DNA of 64,000 nt. It comes from an uncultured Chloroflexia bacterium. Lineage in GTDB: Bacteria > Chloroflexota > Limnocylindria > Limnocylindrales > CSP1-4. Shown piece by piece: positions 4,579 to 63,407 of the stretch. Every line of letters starts with the position of its first letter. Position 1 is the stretch's first letter. A model generated the notes under the pieces. That model was given only the letters and a program-made list of their open reading frames with translations. It had not been told where the DNA came from and made no database searches. Position numbers and translations under genes: made by a program. The stretch is from contig CAVVNQ010000004.1 in NCBI GenBank assembly GCA_963749705.1, positions 86,454-150,453 on the forward strand. Direction: 5' to 3'.

Positions 4579-5870
4579 ACAAGGTCGTGCTTGCCTATTC
4601 CGGAGGCCTCGATACCTCCGTCGCCGTCGCCTGGCTCAAGGAACAGTACGGCGTCGAGGTGATCACCCTGACCGTCGACCTCGGTGGAGGCTCGATGCGC
4701 GAAGGGGTAGAGCGGCGCGCGATCAAGGCCGGCGCGTCGAAGGCGTACGTCGTCGACGCCCGCGAGACGTTCATCCAGCAGTACGCGTGGCGCGCGCTCC
4801 AGTCCGGGGCCGTCTACCAGGGCGCCTATCCCCTGGCGACCGCGCTCGCACGACCCCTGCTCGCGCAGCTCCTGGTCGAGGTTGCCCAGAAAGAGGGTGC
4901 CGACGCCGTCGCCCACGGGTGCACCGGCAAGGGCAACGACCAGGTTCGCTTCGACATCGCGGTCCACGCGCTCGACCCCGGGCTCGAGGTGATCGCGCCG
5001 ATGCGGGTGGGCATGGGCCTGTCGCGCGACCAGGAGATCGACTACGCGATCGAGCGCGGCATCGAGATCCCGATCACCAAGGCGTCTCCGTACTCGATCG
5101 ACGTCAACCTGTGGGGGCGCTCGTGCGAGACGGGCGTGCTCGAGGACCCGTGGGTGACCCCGCCGCCCGATGCGTACGAGTGGACCGTCGCGCCGGGCGA
5201 TGCGCCCGACCCGGTCGATCTCGTGATCGGGTTCGAGGGCGGAATCCCGGTGTCGATCGACGGCCAGCCAATGGGCTCGGTGGAGCTGGTCCAGCGGCTC
5301 CACGACGTCGGCGGCGCCCATGGCGTGGGCCGGATCGATCACGTCGAGGATCGCCTGGTGGGGATCAAGAGCCGCGAGATCTACGAGGCCCCGGCGGCCG
5401 TGATCCTGCACACGGCCCATCACGCGCTCGAAGGGCTCGTGCTGTCCAAGGAGCAGCTGCGGTTCAACCGCCTCGTCGCCGACGAGCTGTCGCAGATCAT
5501 CTACGACGGGCTGTGGTTCAGCGCCCTGTCGCGCGACCTCCGGACCTACGCGCTGTCCTCGCAACGGGTGGTCTCGGGTGACGTGCGGATGCGGCTGGAC
5601 CACGGGCGGGCGATCGTCGTCGGCCGGCGCTCCCCGCTCAGCCTGTACGACAAGAACCTCGCCACCTACGACGAGGGCGACGCCTTCGACCACGCGTCCG
5701 CGGTCGGGTTCATCGAGATCTTCGGGCTGCCGCTGCGGGTCGAGGCCGCGCGCCACGGCGCCGTGGGCAAGCACCACGGCGCGGCGTGGACGTGGACCGA
5801 GCCGTTGCTCGAGGGCCTGCCGACCAGCGTCACGGGCGACGCCGTGGCCGGCGAGACCGGCGGCCGCTGA
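4575..5870 (+). CDS. argG: Argininosuccinate synthase
   Basis: PP-loop AYSGGLDTS; strong overall ArgG similarity; ATGA overlap with argR. Confidence 0.9.
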   Translation: MNKVVLAYSGGLDTSVAVAWLKEQYGVEVITLTVDLGGGSMREGVERRAIKAGASKAYVVDARETFIQQYAWRALQSGAVYQGAYPLATALARPLLAQLLVEVAQKEGADAVAHGCTGKGNDQVRFDIAVHALDPGLEVIAPMRVGMGLSRDQEIDYAIERGIEIPITKASPYSIDVNLWGRSCETGVLEDPWVTPPPDAYEWTVAPGDAPDPVDLVIGFEGGIPVSIDGQPMGSVELVQRLHDVGGAHGVGRIDHVEDRLVGIKSREIYEAPAAVILHTAHHALEGLVLSKEQLRFNRLVADELSQIIYDGLWFSALSRDLRTYALSSQRVVSGDVRMRLDHGRAIVVGRRSPLSLYDKNLATYDEGDAFDHASAVGFIEIFGLPLRVEAARHGAVGKHHGAAWTWTEPLLEGLPTSVTGDAVAGETGGR

Positions 5871-53398: not shown

Positions 53399-53463
53399 TC
53401 GCGCCCGAGCATACCGGGGCCCCGGCCCGAGGCCATTGCGGGATAGTCCGCATCGACGACACG

Positions 53464-53964
53464 ATGAAGGTCCCGGTGGCGGCCCGGCCCCGCACGGTGG
53501 ACACGGCCCGGTGCCGCACGGTGCCCGCGGCCCGGCGAGAGTACGATCGGAGCGTGCAGGACCCGAGATCGACGACACCCGTCCGCATCGACGCGGACCG
53601 CACGGCCGGGACGCTCCGGCTGGAGTGGGCGGACGGGCACCAGACGGCATACGACGCCGCGACCCTGCGCTGGCTGTGCCCCTGCGCGTACTGTCGCGGC
53701 GAGGCGGGCCAGCCGGGCTGGCTCGACACCAACCCGACGCTCACGCCGGACCAGACGACGCTGGTCGATGTCGCCCTGGTGGGTTCCTATGCGGTCCAGG
53801 TGACCTGGGGCGACGGACACCACACGGGCTATCACACGTTCATGCTGCTGCGCGACCGCTGCCCGTGCGCCGAGTGCACGCGCGCCCGCGCCCAGCGTCA
53901 CGAGCACGAGCCCCGGGCGACCGCTCAGGCGAGCGACCGCCACTGGCATGGAGGAGACCAATGA
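53464..53964 (+). CDS. DUF971-domain protein (gamma-butyrobetaine-hydroxylase-like N-terminal domain; CPC/CPC zinc-ribbon-like motifs)
   Basis: LEWADGHQTAYDAATLRWLCPCAYC and a second WGDGHHTGYHTFMLLRDRCPCAEC repeat; an alternative GTG start at 53554 has a GGAG ribosome-binding site. Confidence 0.6.
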   Translation: MKVPVAARPRTVDTARCRTVPAARREYDRSVQDPRSTTPVRIDADRTAGTLRLEWADGHQTAYDAATLRWLCPCAYCRGEAGQPGWLDTNPTLTPDQTTLVDVALVGSYAVQVTWGDGHHTGYHTFMLLRDRCPCAECTRARAQRHEHEPRATAQASDRHWHGGDQ

Positions 53965-54305
53965 TCATCTCGACTGCGCCGTTCATCGCCGGCCACCGCG
54001 TGACCGAGACCAAGGGCCAGGTGTTCGGCCTCGTCGTCCGCAGCCGCGGCCTGGGCGGGAACCTGGTCGCGAGCCTTCGCTCGATCGCCGGCGGCGAGAT
54101 CCACGAGTACACCAGCCTGCTCGAGGACACCCGCCGCCAGGCCGTCGACCGCATGGTCCAGAACGCGACCATGATGGGCGCCAACGGCGTCATCTCGATG
54201 CGCTTCGACTCCTCGGAGATGGCATCGACCATGACCGAGATCGTCGCCTACGGGACCGCGGTCGTGGTCACGCCGGACGCGGGCGCCGCACAGCCGCTGG
54301 AATAG
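53961..54305 (+). CDS. YbjQ/UPF0145 (DUF74) family protein
   Basis: MIISTAPFIAGHRVTETKGQVFGLVVRSRG...VISMRFDSSEMA; GGAGGAG ribosome-binding site; ATGA overlap with the DUF971 gene. Confidence 0.75.
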   Translation: MIISTAPFIAGHRVTETKGQVFGLVVRSRGLGGNLVASLRSIAGGEIHEYTSLLEDTRRQAVDRMVQNATMMGANGVISMRFDSSEMASTMTEIVAYGTAVVVTPDAGAAQPLE

Positions 54306-54828: not shown

Positions 54829-57000
54829 ATGACCGCCGTTCGACCCGCTCCCGGACCCCGCGCCGCGTCCCGCGGCCGACGGCGGGCGGTGCACGACCAT
54901 AAGGCCCCGATCCTCAACCGCGAGCTGTCGTGGATCGAGTTCAACGCCCGCGTGCTCCACGAGGCCCGCGACACGCGCAACCCGATCCTCGAGCGCGTCA
55001 AGTTCCTCGCGATCTTCGCGTCCAACCTCGACGAGTTCTTCCAGGTTCGCGTGTCCGGGTTGCGCCGGCAGGACCTGGCCGGCTCGCAGCACCTGTCCTC
55101 GGACGGCCTGACCCCGGCCAAGCAGCTGGACGCGATCCGGGCCCGGGTCCGGGACCTCGTCGCCGAGCATTCCCTGATCTTCGCCACGATCCGCGAGGAG
55201 CTCGCCGGCGAGGGCGTCGAGATCGTGGACTACGACGACGTTCCCGAGCACCACGACACGCTCCGGCGCCGGTTCCACGACGAGATCTTCCCGGTCCTGA
55301 CGCCGCTCGCCGTGGATCCGGGACACCCGTTCCCGTACATCAGCACCCTGTCGCTCTCGATCGCGGTCGGGCTGCGGGACCCCGAGACGGGCGAGAAGCG
55401 GTTCGCGCGGGTCAAGATCCCGCCGATCCTGCCCCGCCTGTTCGAGGTCGAGCGCGACCGGTTCGTGCTCCTGGACCAGGTCATCGAGGCCAACCTCGAC
55501 GAGCTGTTCCGGGGCATGGAGATCCTCGAGACGCACCTGTTCCGGGTCACCCGCGACGCGGACATCGCGATCGAGGAGGACGAGGCGGACGACCTGCTGC
55601 TCGCGATCGAGGAAGAGGTCCGGCGGCGGCGGTTCGGCGAGGCGGTCCGGCTCGAGGTCGAGCGCTCGATGCCGGAGCTGACGCGCAAGATCCTGATCAA
55701 CGGCATCGGGCTGCGCGAGGACGACAGCTTCGAGGTCGCCGGGATGATGGACCTCACGGCGCTGTGGCAGCTCGCCGAGCTCGACCGTCCCGACCTCAAG
55801 GCGCCGACCTTCACGCCGGTCGTGCCCCAGCGGCTGCTGCCGCCGGACGAGGACGAGCCGGTCGACGTGTTCGCGCAGATGCGGGCCGGGGACCTGCTCC
55901 TCCATCACCCGTACGACTCGTTCACCGCCTCGGTCGAGCGGTTCATCTCGCAGGCCGCGGACGACCCCCTGGTGCTGACCATCAAGCAGACCCTGTACCG
56001 GACGTCGGGCGACTCGCCCATCGTCAAGGCGCTGATCCGCGCGGCGGAGCAGGGCAAGCAGGTCGTGGTCCTGGTCGAGATCAAGGCGCGCTTCGACGAG
56101 GAGGTCAACATCGTCTGGGCGCGCAAGCTTGAGCAGGCGGGCGCCCACGTCGTGTACGGGCTGGTCGGCCTCAAGACCCACTGCAAGGTCGCGCTCGTCG
56201 TCCGGCGCGAGGGCAACGGGCTCCGGCGCTACGTCCACATCGGCACCGGCAACTACAACTCGCGGACGGCGCGCCTGTACGTGGATCTCGGCCTGCTCTC
56301 GTGCCGCGAGGAGCTGGGCGCGGACGTCACGGACCTGTTCAACGTGCTCACCGGGCTGTCACGCCAGAGCGTGTTCCGCCGCCTGCTCGTGGCGCCGATG
56401 ACGCTCCGGTCGCGCTTCCTCGAGCTGGTCGAGCGGGAGGCGGCGAATGCCCGTGCGGGCCAGCAGGCCCGGATCGTGATCAAGGTCAACTCGCTGGTCG
56501 ACACCCAGGTGGTCGAGGCGCTGTACGAGGCGGCGCGGGCGGGCGTCGAGATCGAGTGCATCATCCGGGGCGCGTGCTGCCTGGTCCCCGGCGTCCCCGG
56601 TGCCTCCGAGCGGGCGCGCGCGCGCTCGATCATCGGCGAGTTCCTGGAGCACTCGCGGATCTGGATGTTCGCCAACGGCGGGCGCCCTGAGTGGTACATC
56701 GGGTCGGCGGACCTGATGGAGCGCAACCTCGATCGGCGGGTCGAGGTCGTGACCCCGGTCGAGGATCACGAGGCGCAGGTCCGGCTCGCGCGGATCATCG
56801 AGGTCATGCTGGCCGATGACCGCCGCTCGTGGCAGCTGCAGTCCGACGGCCGATGGGTCCGGACCGAGGTGCTGACGTCGGCCGCGGGCGAGATCGACAC
56901 GTTCGCCGTGCTCAAGCAGGATGCCGCGGCCGCCGCAGCCGCCGCGGACGTGCCCAGACGGCCGCACTCGAACGTCGGATCGATGGACCCGCGCGCGTGA
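54829..57000 (+). CDS. ppk: Polyphosphate kinase 1
   Basis: PPK1 N-terminal motif RNPILERVKFLAIFASNLDEFFQVR and duplicated PLD-like C-terminal domains. Confidence 0.9.
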   Translation: MTAVRPAPGPRAASRGRRRAVHDHKAPILNRELSWIEFNARVLHEARDTRNPILERVKFLAIFASNLDEFFQVRVSGLRRQDLAGSQHLSSDGLTPAKQLDAIRARVRDLVAEHSLIFATIREELAGEGVEIVDYDDVPEHHDTLRRRFHDEIFPVLTPLAVDPGHPFPYISTLSLSIAVGLRDPETGEKRFARVKIPPILPRLFEVERDRFVLLDQVIEANLDELFRGMEILETHLFRVTRDADIAIEEDEADDLLLAIEEEVRRRRFGEAVRLEVERSMPELTRKILINGIGLREDDSFEVAGMMDLTALWQLAELDRPDLKAPTFTPVVPQRLLPPDEDEPVDVFAQMRAGDLLLHHPYDSFTASVERFISQAADDPLVLTIKQTLYRTSGDSPIVKALIRAAEQGKQVVVLVEIKARFDEEVNIVWARKLEQAGAHVVYGLVGLKTHCKVALVVRREGNGLRRYVHIGTGNYNSRTARLYVDLGLLSCREELGADVTDLFNVLTGLSRQSVFRRLLVAPMTLRSRFLELVEREAANARAGQQARIVIKVNSLVDTQVVEALYEAARAGVEIECIIRGACCLVPGVPGASERARARSIIGEFLEHSRIWMFANGGRPEWYIGSADLMERNLDRRVEVVTPVEDHEAQVRLARIIEVMLADDRRSWQLQSDGRWVRTEVLTSAAGEIDTFAVLKQDAAAAAAAADVPRRPHSNVGSMDPRA

Positions 57001-58721
57001 CCGATGTCGCCATCCCGCGACCCGGCGGCGTGGTCGAGGTCGAGCTCAAGTTCCGCATGTCCGGGACGGGCGCCGGGACCCGGCTGATCGCCGCCGACGA
57101 CCTGGCCGGGTTCGCCGCGCTGGCGCCCGCGGCGACGGTCCGGCACGAGGACCGGTACGTCGACACGGCCGACGGCCGGCTGGCGGCGGCCGGCTACGCG
57201 GGACGGTTCCGGTCGGCGGGCGATGTCACGGTGCTCACGCTCAAGTCCCTCCGCTCTGACGCCGAGGACGGCGCGCTCCACCGGCGCGAGGAGCTGGAGG
57301 GCCCGGCGATCGCCGAGGTCCCACCCGATGCGTGGCCCGACTCCGCGGCTCGCACCGCCGTGCTCGAGCTGCTGGGCGGTGCGCCGCTGAGCGACCTCGT
57401 GACCGTCCGGCAGACACGGCACAAGCGAACGTACGGGCGCGAGGGGGTCGTCGTCGAGCTGTCCGTCGATGACGTGGAGATCGTGGCCGGCGAGCGGGTG
57501 CTGGACCGGTTCGCCGAGCTCGAGGTGGAGCTCATCGAGGGCGGCGAGGCGGCGCTCGAACCGCTCGCTGACCTGCTCGCCGAGGTCGAGGAGCTGGTCC
57601 CCGCCGAATCGTCGAAGCTCGAACGGGCGCTGGAGGCCGTCGCCCACGACCGGGCGGGCACGGGCGACCTTCGCGAGGCACCCCAGGGCCCCCGGACGAG
57701 CGTGGCTGCCGGACCGGTCGAGGTGCCCGCGTCGGGCACGGACGTGACCGCGACCCAGGCGCCGGAGCCGGCCGTCCCGCGGATCACCGTCCCCAAGGCG
57801 CCGGGTGTCATCTCCGAGGACCACCTCGCCGAGGCGGGTCGGAAGGTGCTCCGGTTCCACCTGGCCCGGATGATCGCCCGCGAGCCCGGCACCCGCGTCG
57901 GCCGCGACGACGCGGAGCTGCACGCGATGCGCGTGGCGACGCGGCGACAGCGCGCCGCCTGGCGCGTGTTCGGCGAGGCGTTCGACCGCAAGGCGACGGC
58001 CCGCCACCGGGTCCGGCTGCGCGAGGTCGCCCGGGACCTGGGTGCGGTCCGGGACCTCGATGTGCTGATCGGGGCCGCCGAGATGCATCGTGCCCAGCTG
58101 CCGGCACGCGAGGCGGCGGCCTTCGACCGGCTGATCCAGGGGTGGCGCGGGCAGCGCGAAGGTGCCCGCGAGGTCCTGCTCCGGGAGCTCGACTCGGGCC
58201 GCTACCGCAAATGGGTCGACGGGTACGTGGAGTTCGTCCAGGCCGAGGGAGCGGGCGCTCTCCCGGTCGGGCCGACCCAGCCCCACCGCGTGCGGGACAC
58301 GATGCCGTCGCGGATCTGGGCGGCGTACGAGGGCGTTCGCGCCTACGAGCCCGTGCTCAGGTGGGCCGACGTGACCACCCTCCACGACCTCCGGATCGCG
58401 GCCAAGTGGCTGCGCTACACGCTGGAGTTCGTGCGCGAGGCGCTGGGACGTGACGCCGGCCCGGTCATCGAGAAGATCGTCGCGCTCCAGGACCACCTCG
58501 GCTGGCTCCACGACGCGGACGTGGCGGCGGCCCTTGCGCGCCAGTACCTGGTGGAGCACGCGGGCGACCTCACGGAGCTCGAGAGCGCGGCGATCGGCCG
58601 CTATCTCGTCGATCGGGAGCGGGAGCTCGCGCGGCTCCGGCGGACCGTCGGCGGACCCTGGCGCGGGTTGTCGAGCCTCGCCTTCCGTCGCGCGCTCGGC
58701 CGGCTCGTGGCGGGCCTGTAG
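56997..58721 (+). CDS. CYTH-domain plus CHAD-domain protein (polyphosphate-associated)
   Basis: N-terminal CYTH (EVELKFRM ... ELEVELIEG) and C-terminal CHAD helices (HAMRVATRRQRAAWRVFGEAF); GTG start overlapping the ppk stop (GTGA). Confidence 0.75.
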   Translation: MTDVAIPRPGGVVEVELKFRMSGTGAGTRLIAADDLAGFAALAPAATVRHEDRYVDTADGRLAAAGYAGRFRSAGDVTVLTLKSLRSDAEDGALHRREELEGPAIAEVPPDAWPDSAARTAVLELLGGAPLSDLVTVRQTRHKRTYGREGVVVELSVDDVEIVAGERVLDRFAELEVELIEGGEAALEPLADLLAEVEELVPAESSKLERALEAVAHDRAGTGDLREAPQGPRTSVAAGPVEVPASGTDVTATQAPEPAVPRITVPKAPGVISEDHLAEAGRKVLRFHLARMIAREPGTRVGRDDAELHAMRVATRRQRAAWRVFGEAFDRKATARHRVRLREVARDLGAVRDLDVLIGAAEMHRAQLPAREAAAFDRLIQGWRGQREGAREVLLRELDSGRYRKWVDGYVEFVQAEGAGALPVGPTQPHRVRDTMPSRIWAAYEGVRAYEPVLRWADVTTLHDLRIAAKWLRYTLEFVREALGRDAGPVIEKIVALQDHLGWLHDADVAAALARQYLVEHAGDLTELESAAIGRYLVDRERELARLRRTVGGPWRGLSSLAFRRALGRLVAGL

Positions 58722-58723
58722 GC

Positions 58724-60736
58724 CTAGCCCTCCCAGCCGCCGGCCAGGACGGGCAACCGGTCCCGCCAGGCACGACCCGCGATGGCACTCACCAGGATCG
58801 CCCCTTCCCGGATGCCCGCCTCGGACACGCGCAGGCGGTCGACGCCGTACCGGTCCAGGATCGCGTCCACGATCACGGCGCCGGCCGGCAGGATCCTGGC
58901 CCGGGTGTGGCGGAGCGTGTGACGCGCCGCGGTGTCGGCACTGGTCCCGACCGTCAGCATCGCGAGCGCGATCGTCACGCGGCGGCTGGTGAGGATGCTG
59001 TCGGACGTCCGTCCCGGCAGGATCCGCAACAGGTTGGACGCGGTTCCGCCGACCGCGACCATCTCCTCGGGACGGGCGTCGGGCGCGTCGGCGATGACGC
59101 GTCGAGCGTCGATGACCATGGCGTCGATCTCGTCCATCGTGGGCGGATCGGATCGAACGTGATCCTGCGTCAGGCGCGCTGATCCGAGCGGCAGGCCGAT
59201 GCACCGGGCGGGCTCGCCCGGCGAGGAGACGACGATCTCGGAGCTGCCGCCGCCGATGTCGACGACCATGATCTCGCGACCGGCGGCCCGTCCCATCGTG
59301 ACGCCCGCCAGCGTGAGCATGCCCTCTTCACGGTGGTCGAGGACGTACAGCGGCAGGCCAGTACGCGCCTCGACGTCGCGGACGAGGATCGCGGCATCGG
59401 CGGCGCGCCGGATCGGCTCGGTGCCCATCAGCACGACCTCGACGGCACCGAGGTTCCGGGCGGCCTCCGCGTATGTCGCCAGGGCAGCGACGAGGTCATC
59501 GCGCGCGGTCGCACCGAGGAAGCCATCCGTCGCCACGCGATCGCCCAGCCCGAGGAACACCAATTCGTCGAGCATCGGATCGAGCTGGTGGCCCCCGGCC
59601 GCGGCGACCAGGAGATGGACGCTGTTGGCGCCGATGTCGATGGATGCACCGACGACGAGCTCGGGACCGGTCACCAGCAGCGGCCGGGAGATCTCGATCA
59701 CGGTCACCGACGGTCCCTGGGGCTCCAACCCGGCGGCGGCTGCCGGCGGCAGGTCAGCTGCGAGCTCCGGCTCGGCGGCGGTGGACGGTTCGGGGGCGGC
59801 GGACGGTTCGTCCGGCGCGACGGGGGCCACGTCGTAGGCGTCCGGAACATCGTCATCGGGACTCGACATGTACGGCGGCGCGACCTGGGCGTCAAAGGCG
59901 AAGCCGGTTCGATCGGGTGACATGGCGAATGGCGGCTCGACCGGCCACGGATCGGACGGCGTTGCGAACGCCGGCTGCCGTGGTCCTGGCTCGGGTTCGG
60001 GTTCCGCCTCGAGGGGCGGCTCAGGTTCGAGCTCGAGGGCCGGCTCGGGCTCAGACTCCGGTTCCGGCTCCAGGGCGAGTTCGGGCTCGGGTTCGGGCTC
60101 GAGGGCGAGTTCGGGCTCCGGCTCGATGGCAGGTTCGGGCTCGAGGGCGAGTTCGGGCTCCGGCTCGATGGCCGGTTCGGGCTCGAGGGCAGGTTCGGGT
60201 TCGGGCTCGGGTTCGGGCTCGGGCTCGGGCGCCGATCCGACCTCGGGTTCCGATTCGACCTCGGCCTCCGGTTCGGGGTCGCGCTCGCGCCGCCCGACAC
60301 GGTCGACGATCCGCGACGCAGCGGGCTCAGCGGTCTGGCGGACGAGATCGGCGACCTCCTGGAGCACCGCTTCGGCAGCTGCGGCCATCTCGCCCGATTG
60401 CTCTGCCTGCTCCGGTACGGGCTCGGGCGCGGGCACGGCGACCCGCGCCGCGCGCTCTCGCTTGACCCGCCGAGCATCCGCATGCACATCGACCGCCGTT
60501 GCGGCGACGTCCGCGGCCGTTCGTTCGATCCTGCGGGCTGCTTTCGCCGCCCGCTTTGCTGCCTTGGCCGCCCGTTGCGCCGCCTTCTCGGCGGCGGCCG
60601 CCTCCCGCCGCGCCGCCCTGGCCCGCCGTTTCGCTTCCTTCCTTATGGCCTTCCGTTCCGCCTTGCGCGCGGCCTTGCGGGCGGCTTTCGCCTTCTTCGC
60701 GGCGCGCCTGCCGGCCTTTGCCTCGCGCTTCGACAT
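58724..60736 (-). CDS. ppx: Exopolyphosphatase (Ppx/GppA family) with an about 340-aa intrinsically disordered N-terminal extension (Lys/Ala-rich basic segment plus acidic Glu-Pro repeat segment)
   Basis: C-terminal about 330 aa are a Ppx/GppA domain ([30 protein letters not shown]). The in-frame upstream part encodes [18 protein letters not shown]... then [24 protein letters not shown] repeats. Start set at the ATG giving MSKREAKAG; an alternative ATG lies at 60922. Confidence 0.75.
59990..60245. repeat. Hexanucleotide-periodic tandem repeat (GGCTCG/GGTTCG units, higher-order units of about 48 bp) encoding the Glu-Pro repeat of the ppx extension
   Basis: Direct reading of the sequence; the mirror-frame GS-rich ORF on the plus strand is its artefact. 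Confidence 0.7.
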
Positions 60737-61049
60737 TGCGTCGTCGGCCGGCTCCTGGTCCGGCGTCTCGCGGACGCCGCCCGCGCGCGGCAACCCTGTG
60801 CCCGTCGGCGGCACGTCCAGACCACCCGGCGCGCCCGCAAACGGGTTGTCGAGCCCGCTCGTCTCGCCGCTCCGACGCCAGTCGGTCCTGTCGTGATCAC
60901 CCACCGCACAAGTCTGCCCCACCCGCGGCCACCCTGCGAGGCCGGCGTGACCGCATGACGTGCTGCGGCGCCCGATCGCTCACGTTCGATGACCGACCCG
61001 GAACGGGACCGCGATTCGTGCACGGATCCCGAGCGGCATCCACCGAAGC

Positions 61050-61093
61050 GTTAACCCGCACTTAACGGTCCGCACATCAGCCGTTGACGGCCG
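61050..61093. promoter_or_regulatory. Four consecutive 11-nt direct-repeat units (GTTAACCcgca CTTAACGgtcc GCACATCagcc GTTGACGgccg) resembling actinobacterial PHO boxes, upstream of pstS
   Basis: 11-nt periodicity with GTT(A/C)AC(C/G) cores; located 77-120 nt upstream of the pstS GTG, in the pstS/ppx divergent region. Confidence 0.4.
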
Positions 61094-61169: not shown

Positions 61170-62321
61170 GTGACCATCACCCCTGCGAGGCGCCTCGGCG
61201 CGATCGCCCTCGCCGCGACCATGTTCGTCGCCGCCTGCGGCGGCTCCGGCGCCACCACCGCGCCCACCGACCAGTCGGCGGCAAGCATGGCTCCCGGATC
61301 CTCGGGCGACGCGATGACCGGACCCGAGCCCGGCACGGCGAGCCTCGTGCTCCAGGGCGCCGGTGCCACCTTCCCGGCCCCCCTGTACCAGGTCTGGTTC
61401 GAGAAGTACACGGAGCTGCACGGCAACATCCAGTTCGACTACCAGGCGATCGGCTCCGGCGGTGGCATCAAGGCCATCACCGAGCAGACCGTGGACTTCG
61501 GCGCATCCGATGCAGCGATGAAGGACAGCGAGATCTCCGCGCTCCCGGCCGGCGTCACGCTGCTCCATGTCCCGACCGCGCTGGGCGCCGTCGTGGTGAT
61601 CTTTAACGTCCCGGGCGTGACCGACCTGAACCTCGACGCCGACGCGGTGGCCGGGATCTTCCTGGGCACGATCACCAACTGGAACGACCCGAAGATCGCG
61701 GCGCTCAATCCCGGCGTCACGCTCCCCGACCTCGCGGTCACGGTCGTCCATCGCAGCGACGGCTCGGGCACGACCAACGCCTTCACCACCTACCTCGACA
61801 CGGTCAGCCCTGACTGGCACGCGGGTCCCGGTGCGGGCAAGGAGGTCAACTGGCCGGTGGGCATCGGTGCCCCGGGCAACGACGGCGTCGCCGGCGGCGT
61901 CAAGCAGACCGACGGGACGGTGGGCTACGTCGAGCTCAACTACGCCGCGCAGGCCGGGCTGACGTCGGCCAAGGTCAAGAACGCCGACGGCCAGTTCGTC
62001 GCCGGATCGACCGCCGGCGTCACCGCTGCCGCGGAAGCCGCCGCCACCACCTTCCCCGCCGACTTCCGCCAGGCCCCGATCATCAACGGTGCGGGCGCCT
62101 CGACCTATCCGATCGCTTCCTACACCTACCTGCTGATCCCGGTCGACTGGACCGACGCTGACAAGGCGCAGGCGATGGTCGCGTTCACCTACTGGGCGCT
62201 GACCGACGGCCAGGCGGACGAGGACGGGCTGGGCTACGCACCGCTCCCCGCCCCGATCCAGCAGAAGTCGCTCGACGAGCTCCACAAGGTCATGGCCAAC
62301 GGGTCCGCCGTCTGGCCCTGA
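61170..62321 (+). CDS. pstS: Phosphate ABC transporter substrate-binding lipoprotein
   Basis: Lipobox FVAACGG and PstS motifs (GAGATFPAPLYQVW, HRSDGSGTT); GTG start with a GGAGG ribosome-binding site. Confidence 0.85.
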   Translation: MTITPARRLGAIALAATMFVAACGGSGATTAPTDQSAASMAPGSSGDAMTGPEPGTASLVLQGAGATFPAPLYQVWFEKYTELHGNIQFDYQAIGSGGGIKAITEQTVDFGASDAAMKDSEISALPAGVTLLHVPTALGAVVVIFNVPGVTDLNLDADAVAGIFLGTITNWNDPKIAALNPGVTLPDLAVTVVHRSDGSGTTNAFTTYLDTVSPDWHAGPGAGKEVNWPVGIGAPGNDGVAGGVKQTDGTVGYVELNYAAQAGLTSAKVKNADGQFVAGSTAGVTAAAEAAATTFPADFRQAPIINGAGASTYPIASYTYLLIPVDWTDADKAQAMVAFTYWALTDGQADEDGLGYAPLPAPIQQKSLDELHKVMANGSAVWP

Positions 62322-62444: not shown

Positions 62445-63407
62445 ATGACGACGCTCCAGGTCCCCGGACGACGGCTTGCCTCCGGCTCGGGCAAGGTCGC
62501 CGACCGCCTGTTCCGTGGCGGATCGGGCCTCGCCGCGTATGCGGTCGTCGGGATCCTGATCCTGCTGGCGGCGATGCTGACGCTGAGCAGCACCGAGGCC
62601 CTGACGCACTTCGGGATCGTCGAGTTCATCACGGGCACGACCTGGGACCCGGTCAACCGGATCTTCGGTGCGCTGCCGTACATCGTCGGCACGCTCCTGT
62701 CCGCCGCGATCGCGCTGGTCATCGCCACACCGATCGCGCTGCTCACCGCGATCTACCTCTCGGAGCTCGCGCCGCGCCGGGTCGCGATCCCGCTCACGTT
62801 CCTGGTCGAGCTGATCGCAGCGGTCCCATCCGTCGTCATCGGCCTGTGGGGCGTGTTCGTGCTGACGCCGTTCCTCAAGCTGACCGTCGAGTCCTTCCTC
62901 GTGAGCACCCTCGGCGGCTCGATCAGCATCTTCGAGGGGCCGCCGCTGGGGATCGGGCTGTTCGCCGCCGGCGTCATCCTCGCGATCATGATCCTGCCCA
63001 CCATCGTGTCCGTCTCGCGCGAGGTCATCACCTCGGTGCCGATGGCCCAGCGCGAAGCAATGTTCGCCCTCGGCGCCACGCGCTGGGAGGTGGTCACCAG
63101 GGCCGTCCTGCCGGCGGCCAGGTCGGGCATCGCCGGGGCGGTGATCCTGGGCCTGGGCCGCGCGCTGGGCGAGACGATGGCCGTGACCATGGTCATCGGC
63201 AACGCGCAGGACATCCCGACGTCGCTGTTCGACCAGTCGCAGACCATCGCGTCCAAGATCGCGACGACCTTCAACGAGGCGTCGGTCGGGCTCCAGACCT
63301 CGAGCCTCATCGCCCTCGGCCTGATCCTGCTGGTGCTGACGATCGGGCTCAACATCGTGGCCCGGTTGCTGGTGTGGCGGGTCGCCGGCGCGGTCGGCAC
63401 GGAGTGA
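62445..63407 (+). CDS. pstC: Phosphate ABC transporter permease PstC
   Basis: PstC-like six-transmembrane permease with an EAA loop region. Confidence 0.85.
   Translation: MTTLQVPGRRLASGSGKVADRLFRGGSGLAAYAVVGILILLAAMLTLSSTEALTHFGIVEFITGTTWDPVNRIFGALPYIVGTLLSAAIALVIATPIALLTAIYLSELAPRRVAIPLTFLVELIAAVPSVVIGLWGVFVLTPFLKLTVESFLVSTLGGSISIFEGPPLGIGLFAAGVILAIMILPTIVSVSREVITSVPMAQREAMFALGATRWEVVTRAVLPAARSGIAGAVILGLGRALGETMAVTMVIGNAQDIPTSLFDQSQTIASKIATTFNEASVGLQTSSLIALGLILLVLTIGLNIVARLLVWRVAGAVGTE

Follow-up and report, generated by a model that had tools for sequence, protein, structure and literature searches.

The short-form Ppx/GppA enzymes of Aquifex aeolicus (PPX/GPPA; structures 1T6C, 1T6D and 2J4R) and Mycobacterium tuberculosis (Rv0496, MTB-PPX1) consist of a two-domain ASKHA core of about 310 residues, without domains 3–4 and, in these structures and in PMC3411833, without a long N-terminal extension. 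MTB-PPX1, which lacks domains 3–4, prefers short chains (PMC3411833). In the long form, represented by Escherichia coli PPX (1U6Z, 2FLO), these domains are required for the binding of polyphosphate (polyP) (PMC5025862). Few bacterial proteins are known to recognise polyP, and how enzymes find polyP granules and stay on them is an open question (PMC9239181, PMC12345225). Here we describe a ppx gene located in a 64,000-nucleotide (nt) stretch of contig CAVVNQ010000004.1 from an uncultured Chloroflexia bacterium (hereafter the window, to which positions refer unless a related locus is named). Its product shares the two-domain core of the short forms, but about 420 residues precede this core and include, in order, a lysine-rich block predicted to be helical, a conserved motif and an acidic segment rich in Glu and Pro. 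Sequence comparisons indicate that this extension is in frame, translated and under purifying selection. A polyP or granule tether mounted on an acidic spacer is, overall, the best explanation of its layout, and we would give it a probability of roughly one half.

Lysine- and alanine-rich cationic low-complexity blocks attached to another domain are known from AlgP and PhaF of Pseudomonas aeruginosa and from mycobacterial HupB. The tails of HupB and histone H1 are made of Pro-containing repeats of the PAKKA type. AlgP tails are composed of KPAA repeats (PMC9239181). The basic block described here is of the same general kind, but unlike the disordered tails of AlgP, PhaF and HupB, built of tandem Pro-containing tetra- and pentapeptides, it has no Pro, many Arg residues and some Glu. 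Runs of EP dipeptides, the second feature of the extension, also occur in the (EP)n(KP)n region of TonB and in the trypanosome EP procyclin (PARP). Unlike these, the present protein is cytoplasmic and has no KP half, and its repeat units are EPEPxLEP-like, irregular and variable between relatives. There is no homology either: the procyclin model (PF05887) gave 16–19 bits against a cut-off of 100, a compositional likeness only. A third parallel is offered by the CHAD phosins, which are helical, positively charged, proposed to bind polyP and encoded at the same locus (PMC6537752, PMC6771595). However, CHAD is a folded, His-rich helical bundle with its own Pfam model (PF05235), whereas the extension is not enriched in His and gave no CHAD match within amino acids (aa) 1–412 even at E ≤ 10.

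In its proposed logic, an ASKHA core joined to a separate polymer-binding module, the protein resembles E. coli PPX (PMC5025862; PMC3411833). Unlike domains 3–4, to which it is not homologous, the module is N-terminal and not globular, and its binding to polyP is something we infer. Nothing relevant was found in the literature on Ppx with lysine-rich or N-terminal extensions, or on Limnocylindria together with polyphosphate. The extension is a lineage-specific accessory module undescribed in the literature searched, and the enzyme core is otherwise ordinary and known.

Catalytic core and reading frame

The C-terminal 313 residues of the protein are an ordinary short-form Ppx/GppA core without domains 3–4 of E. 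coli PPX. The first-pass annotation of the window had recognised a complete Ppx/GppA domain in frame with a long N-terminal region, and this assignment holds: aa 439–710 match profile PF02541 (114.3 bits, where the cut-off is 27; E = 9.5e-33; profile positions 2–279 of 285). By sequence, the closest solved structures are those of the A. aeolicus enzymes (2j4r, 1t6c and 1t6d), with 26–27% identity over the core. The AlphaFold2 (AF2) model of the core, with predicted local distance difference test (pLDDT) values above 90, has the two-domain ASKHA fold of 1t6d (template modelling score, TM, 0.86; E = 2.4e-25 in Foldseek). Residues D429, G431, S434, E532, E533, D555, G557–G559, S560, E562 and G626 are invariant in a 53-sequence alignment, and the phosphate-binding and catalytic motifs (DxGxNS, the catalytic Glu pair, DxGGGS.E and GGT) align with those of A. 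aeolicus. The narrower model TIGR03706 (exo_poly_only) gave 177.7 bits, below its cut-off of 307, which leaves the protein outside that group, and the NCBIfam exopolyphosphatase and GppA models gave partial scores, all under their cut-offs.

The ppx open reading frame (ORF) is uninterrupted on the minus strand in the ORF list. The G+C content of the region is 72–75%. At 72% GC the length of an ORF is by itself weak evidence of coding, and the case for translation therefore relies on codon-position GC, on the ratio of nonsynonymous to synonymous substitution rates (dN/dS) and on homologues. Along the whole frame, the three codon positions have a coding-like GC content. The dN/dS values (Nei–Gojobori) were calculated for the pairs window–L003, window–L005 and L003–L005, where L-numbers denote related loci or contigs; P-numbers below denote homologous proteins. 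Four relatives were compared (L003, L001/L004, L002 and L005), all Microflora Danica metagenome-assembled genomes named 'uncultured Chloroflexia'. The core of the basic block (aa 63–132) gave 0.06–0.24 and the conserved motif 0.04–0.07, values as low as the 0.11–0.19 of the Ppx domain; those of the N-terminal head and of the linker ahead of the core were 0.37–0.48 and 0.34–0.53, respectively. Locus L005 carries a full-length, intact orthologous ORF of the same layout, and intact long ORFs are present in independent data sets (L005 and L013, Nanopore; L014, Joint Genome Institute, JGI).

Of 59 Ppx homologues retrieved from a database, about 57 have such an N-terminal region; most are 500–900 aa long, and those that carry a name at source are given as 'Candidatus Limnocylindrales' or Chloroflexota. 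Forty-five homologues have extensions of 150 aa or more; in these, the median length is 290 aa, and the cumulative charge rises to a median peak of +18 near residue 125 and then drops by 25. Proline makes up 3.6% of residues before the charge peak and 18.6% after it, and the extension has a median of 17 Lys, the Ppx domain a median of 1. Although their sequences differ, about 45 homologues keep the order of the blocks and the block charges.

A start of translation at or near the Ppx domain, with an untranslated high-GC open frame upstream, had been named beforehand as the finding that would overturn the annotation. Several observations are compatible with it. High-GC genomes yield long spurious ORFs, such as an 812-aa antisense ORF that overlaps the ppx locus; a search with the Ppx domain only returned many close homologues called at 300–350 aa; and one orthologue, L007, truly has no extension. 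Against it stand the dN/dS of 0.04–0.24 in the basic block and motif, the conservation of the motif at the protein level in 41 of 59 homologues, the roughly 57 homologues of the same layout, the intact ORFs in L005, L013 and L014, and the DNA upstream of the short-called genes. Seven such loci on long contigs were read (L007, L001 and L008–L012). In L007, whose Ppx domain is 69% identical and whose synteny is the same, only 241 nt separate pstS and ppx (4760–5000). The other six, that is, every short-called locus with enough upstream DNA, carry the basic block and the motif upstream, in a frame that is broken, inside the Glu-Pro repeat wherever this was read. The repeat region in which the frame breaks lies at 5640–6009 in L001, 5687–6009 in L002, about 4700–5000 in L008, about 4480–5000 in L009 and upstream of 3001 in L010–L012, and gene calling as a result yields either two genes or a Ppx of 300–390 aa; in L003 the frameshift lies just ahead of the catalytic domain. 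Short homologues are thus not a sign of downstream initiation, and judged from these sequences the artefact explanation is already largely refuted and very unlikely.

The frameshifted cases all come from Nanopore-only Microflora Danica assemblies (PMC12313526), whereas the frame is intact in L014 (JGI) and in some of the Nanopore contigs, namely the window, L005 and L013. For this reason a biological origin of the frameshifts, as split genes or phase variation, was considered unlikely. Changes in repeat units, by 6 nt, cannot shift the frame. At the repeat the gene is often cut short or divided, both by gene callers and in Nanopore assemblies, and the extension is consequently under-annotated.

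Since the syntenic orthologue L007 lacks the extension entirely, the module is, on this comparison, accessory and dispensable. It appears from its distribution to be ancestral to much of the clade and to have been lost at least once, and L007 provides a natural minus-extension control.

An extension of 340 aa had been deduced from an ATG at 60736. This codon is codon 63 of the minus-strand ORF (670 aa when counted from it) and is replaced by ACC in L003 and by GCG in L005, which rules it out as a conserved start. The only in-frame start codons common to the window, L003, L001 and L005 are GTG 60922 (codon 1) and GTG 60904 (codon 7); L005 has just one further in-frame start ahead of the basic block, at codon 17. 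Judging from this conservation, translation most likely starts at either GTG 60922 or GTG 60904, and the extension would accordingly measure about 413–419 aa. The weakly conserved, acidic head that these starts add has no indels over 62 codons and shows third-position synonymous changes, e.g. across LDVPP.

A consensus scan for signals of the ppx gene found no sigma-70-type promoter and no terminator. A 13-nt element, GGGGCAGACTTGT, at 60920–60908 overlaps codons 1–5 of the long ORF, and the other relatives examined keep it upstream of ppx as well. In the extension-less L007 it lies about 50 nt ahead of the ATG, in a different frame, which argues for a signal at the DNA or RNA level; it is probably a promoter or 5′-end signal. 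The CAGACT within it, 6 nt ahead of GTG 60904, could be a hexamer of the −10 type and would then suggest a leaderless mRNA.

Two long frames overlapping the gene were noted as well, the 812-aa ORF mentioned above (56766–59204, minus strand; over the CHAD and ppx genes) and a Gly/Ser-rich frame of 342 aa opposite the Glu-Pro repeat (59868–60896, plus strand). Both are probably artefacts of the kind typical of high GC.

Blocks of the extension

The basic block contains 15 Lys, 21 Arg, 37 Ala, 7 Glu and no Pro in 96 residues, and its net charge is +26. Aligned without gaps, it is 88–91% identical to its counterparts in L005 and L003. The block contains every one of the protein's 15 lysines (p ~ 6e-14 under random placement along the protein), and the Ppx domain has 31 Arg and no Lys. 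The 64-kb window was scanned for stop-free stretches of 40 aa with at least 6 Lys, or with at least 26 Glu plus Pro (at least 10 of each); besides the ppx region, only two Lys-rich stretches, at about 20.5–20.8 kb, matched. The basic, Lys/Ala-rich N-terminal segment reported in the first-pass annotation is therefore real, but its likening to H1 or HupB tails does not suit a sequence of 96 residues with no Pro and no fixed repeat unit that is predicted to be helical. The same annotation had described the whole extension as disordered. The AF2 model agrees for aa ~209–415 and disagrees for the basic block, which is predicted to form one continuous helix (residues 61–158, about 98 residues) with pLDDT of 83–89.

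Single alpha-helix domains of the ER/K type have roughly balanced, alternating acidic and basic residues joined by i/i+4 salt bridges. The helix described here, with 36 Lys plus Arg against 10 Asp plus Glu and a net charge of +26, is strongly polycationic and is not of this type. PASK regions are defined by at least 75% Asp, Glu, Ser and Lys in a 20-aa window including at least one Lys (PMC12345225); the maximum here is 40% in the helix and 50% anywhere in the protein, and the sequence is thus not a PASK region. Apart from the compositional PARP match, a Pfam search with the extension (E ≤ 10) returned nothing but noise (SRP-alpha_N, HAM1_N), and a sequence search of the PDB with the extension gave no meaningful match.

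Long helices of this kind may also be read as an oligomerisation device or scaffold, in which an Ala-faced coiled coil (with Ala in a/d-like positions) would bring enzyme molecules together as dimers or bundles, perhaps not until polyP neutralises the charge. The AF2 helices are uninterrupted over 98 residues here and 128 residues in homologue P0050 (a single helix, residues 47–174), Ala and Lys/Arg recur in the block with a periodicity of 3.6 residues, and heptad-like seven-residue KAERKAT repeats are present in P0009 and P0024. A net charge of +26 per helix, however, disfavours homomeric packing, large hydrophobic core residues are few, and some family members swap the helix for Pro-containing basic repeats, which points to selection on charge rather than on a coiled-coil fold. 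We consider oligomerisation an improbable main function.

The basic block is followed by a family-specific motif, (V/M)LxEVAxLVRQxxEPAAxRIVxRV, which the first-pass annotation had not noted. It is 95–100% identical in L005 and L003, without gaps, and 41 of the 59 homologues match a hidden Markov model (HMM) of it (E < 1e-5). Among 1.84e9 representative proteins, a profile search yielded 10 at E ≤ 0.001: six family members (full-length or partial), three short fragments, among which P0069 is a weak low-complexity match, and P0071, an unrelated sequence. No sign of the motif on other enzymes was seen in this search, and by this measure it is found almost only in this Ppx family. AF2 predicts helices at residues 180–197 and 204–208, on either side of a Pro, with pLDDT of about 60. 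In P0050, where the motif abuts the core, the corresponding helix comprises residues 259–273, and residues 261–270 average a pLDDT of 76.

The acidic repeat comes next. In about 103 aa it contains 38 Glu and 33 Pro residues, including 28 EP dipeptides, with a net charge of −38. Tandem Repeats Finder (TRF) detected DNA repeats at 60004–60275 with periods of 12, 18, 24, 30 and 42 nt, all multiples of 6. The EP repeat of hexanucleotide periodicity claimed in the first-pass annotation is thus present, although the true repeat is about 103 aa long and not 150. Its predicted variation in length was borne out between related genomes, in the five sequences compared: the distance from the end of the motif to DPWPVE is 330 nt in the window, 240 in L003, 322 in L002, 369 in L001 and 459 in L005. 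By analogy with TonB and procyclin, a role of the EP runs as an extended rigid spacer is plausible.

The acidic repeat might instead act as a charge switch, as proposed in the first-pass annotation: it would fold onto the helix or the active-site cleft as a mimic of polyP, and the enzyme would stay off or unbound until polyP or cations displaced it. Acidic tails that mask basic regions occur in other proteins, and the cationic-then-anionic order is kept in 45 homologues. Yet the positive and negative charges of the blocks do not co-vary (r = 0.07, p = 0.68, n = 42 homologues): the basic charge keeps within +8 to +30, whereas acidic charges from −7 to −63 occur. Moreover, the length of the repeat varies freely even among close relatives, the acidic repeat precedes the motif in P0046, P0050 and P0051, and the high Pro content favours an extended spacer. 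Autoinhibition by a polyP mimic therefore gains no support, and we regard it as rather unlikely.

In the three homologues just mentioned, EEPEAT units separate the basic helix from the motif, which itself adjoins the Ppx domain directly; spacer and motif consequently do not keep one fixed order in the family. Within the linker, the PWP(V/I)E part of DPWPVE...DRTGFAFDA recurs in P0001, P0022, P0027, P0028, P0029 and L011. This sequence may be a second short linear motif in a region otherwise predicted to be disordered.

Proposed tethering to polyphosphate and its competitors

Lysine, and not arginine, is needed for polyP binding by E. coli YihI and PASK-type regions in a gel-shift assay (PMC12345225). 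In the mechanism that we propose, the lysine-rich helix would bind long-chain polyP or the granule surface through multivalent electrostatic contacts, which would concentrate the enzyme on its substrate and keep it attached. The Glu/Pro-rich segment would form an extended, polyP-repelling spacer of adjustable length between this anchor and the core, and the conserved motif would mediate a specific protein contact, either with the catalytic core or with another protein, for example PPK1 or the CHAD protein. The helix would be a functional analogue, not a homologue, of the polyP-binding C-terminal domains 3–4 of E. coli PPX. Of the two targets named in the first-pass annotation, polyP granules or DNA, tethering to polyP is made plausible by the ppk1/CHAD/pst context and by the confinement of Lys to the helix.

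Several points weigh against this tether. Its role rests on charge, composition and gene context, and a cationic Lys-rich helix would have no less affinity for DNA, RNA or acidic membranes than for polyP. Long single helices in AF2 models often mark coiled coils, and the block could serve oligomerisation; the pLDDT of the motif is low (about 60–76). With the TIGR03706 score under its cut-off, polyP rather than (p)ppGpp as the substrate is suggested by the ppk1/CHAD/pst context. Enrichment with polyP granules was not seen for Ppx of P. aeruginosa (PMC9239181), and residence on granules is thus no general trait of Ppx. Finally, many relatives in Nanopore assemblies carry frameshifts in the repeat, which are probably assembly errors.

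The strongest competitor is an anchor to nucleic acids, in which the helix would bind DNA or RNA and place the phosphatase by nucleoid-embedded polyP granules, in the manner of the AlgP and PhaF tails. The block is Lys-rich with a net charge of +26, and P0014, P0033 and P0067 have Pro/Lys-rich basic blocks that are more H1-like. Peptides taken from the C-terminal tail of AlgP bind DNA in vitro, as do KPAA-repeat peptides, and the K/A-rich tail of granule-associated AlgP is needed to keep polyP granules evenly spaced (PMC9239181). The block in the window, however, contains neither Pro nor a KPAA or PAKKA unit and is predicted to be helical; no DNA-binding family matches the extension (Pfam, E ≤ 10); and the gene context is all phosphate and polyP metabolism. 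We find this anchor unlikely as the main role, although binding to DNA and binding to polyP are not mutually exclusive.

The polyP tether may also be framed more boldly. The helix together with the VLxEVAxLVRQxxEPAAxRIVxRV motif would then be an unrecognised, portable module for granule targeting and processivity, a polyP binder of neither the CHAD nor the PASK type, which would turn a short-chain, quasi-processive two-domain Ppx into a granule-resident enzyme acting on long chains, with the length of the Glu-Pro repeat tuning its reach. This extended form is tentative, and we would sooner expect it to fail than to hold. If true, the module would achieve by convergence what domains 3–4 do for E. 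coli PPX.

In this family, from uncultured soil Chloroflexota, nature has joined a polyP-degrading core to a cationic helix to which Lys is confined, in an otherwise lysine-avoiding genome. Natural variants in spacer length, together with the orthologue lacking the extension, make it a ready system for questions of polyP targeting: whether multivalent lysine helices suffice for targeting to polyP or granules, how a tether affects the chain-length preference and processivity of a short-form Ppx, and what the family-specific motif binds. Should the tether idea prove wrong, a clean, conserved block-polyampholyte extension on a metabolic enzyme would still stand.

Genomic neighbourhood

The features of the ppx gene and its surroundings are listed in Table 1.

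Table 1. Coordinates of the ppx gene, the blocks of its product and neighbouring features in the 64,000-nt window
Feature	Position	Strand	Basis and remarks
Whole ppx ORF	58724–60922	−	732 aa from GTG 60922; stop 58724–58726; short-form Ppx/GppA with N-terminal extension
Head, aa 1–62	60737–60922	−	Acidic, Gly/Pro/Asp-rich, net −6, pLDDT <50; holds GTG 60922 and GTG 60904
Lys/Arg/Ala-rich basic block, aa 63–158	60449–60736	−	Composition, AF2 helix, identity, dN/dS
Family-specific motif, aa 177–214	60281–60394	−	Predicted helix-Pro-helix; identity, dN/dS, HMM
Acidic Glu-Pro repeat, aa 215–317	59972–60280	−	TRF, composition, pLDDT <50; predicted disordered
Acidic Pro/Ala-rich linker, aa 318–419	59666–59971	−	Non-repetitive, Asp/Pro/Ala-rich, net −15, pLDDT <50
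Trp motif DPWPVE...DRTGFAFDA, aa 324–345	59888–59953	−	Inside linker
Two-domain short-form Ppx/GppA core, aa 420–732	58727–59665	−	PF02541, PDB matches, Foldseek, AF2
YbjQ_1-domain protein	53436–54305	+	Window gene order
ppk1 (polyphosphate kinase 1)	54829–57000	+	Four PPK1 Pfam domains; upstream of CYTH-CHAD
CYTH-CHAD, convergent neighbour	56829–58721 (longest ORF)	+	Pfam CHAD 7e-48, CYTH 8e-16
pstS (phosphate-binding protein), divergent neighbour	61170–62321	+	PBP_like_2 6.9e-41
pstC	62445–63407	+	BPD_transp_1
Pho-box-like direct repeats	61050–61088	−	GTCAAC 61088–61083, GTTAAG 61066–61061, GTTAAC 61055–61050; 11-nt phase

The gene order in relatives is phoU-pstBACS, ppx, CYTH-CHAD, ppk1 and YbjQ. 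In every locus read that extended far enough, ppk1, CYTH-CHAD and pstSCAB-phoU flank ppx, and ppk1 occupies the same position in L001, L007–L009, L013 and L014. CHAD is a polyP-binding module (PMC6537752). The longest CYTH-CHAD ORF overlaps ppk1 by 171 nt; in relatives the protein has 566–618 aa and its gene abuts ppk1, and from this length and position the true start probably lies near 56997.

The Pho-box-like direct repeats are located in the divergent intergenic region between ppx and pstS and are conserved in L001, L003, L005 and L007. They have the look of a Pho box for a regulator of the PhoB/PhoP type, by comparison with the known architecture of such boxes. In L008–L012, a gene for an OmpR-type regulator (Trans_reg_C) is located between pstS and ppx.

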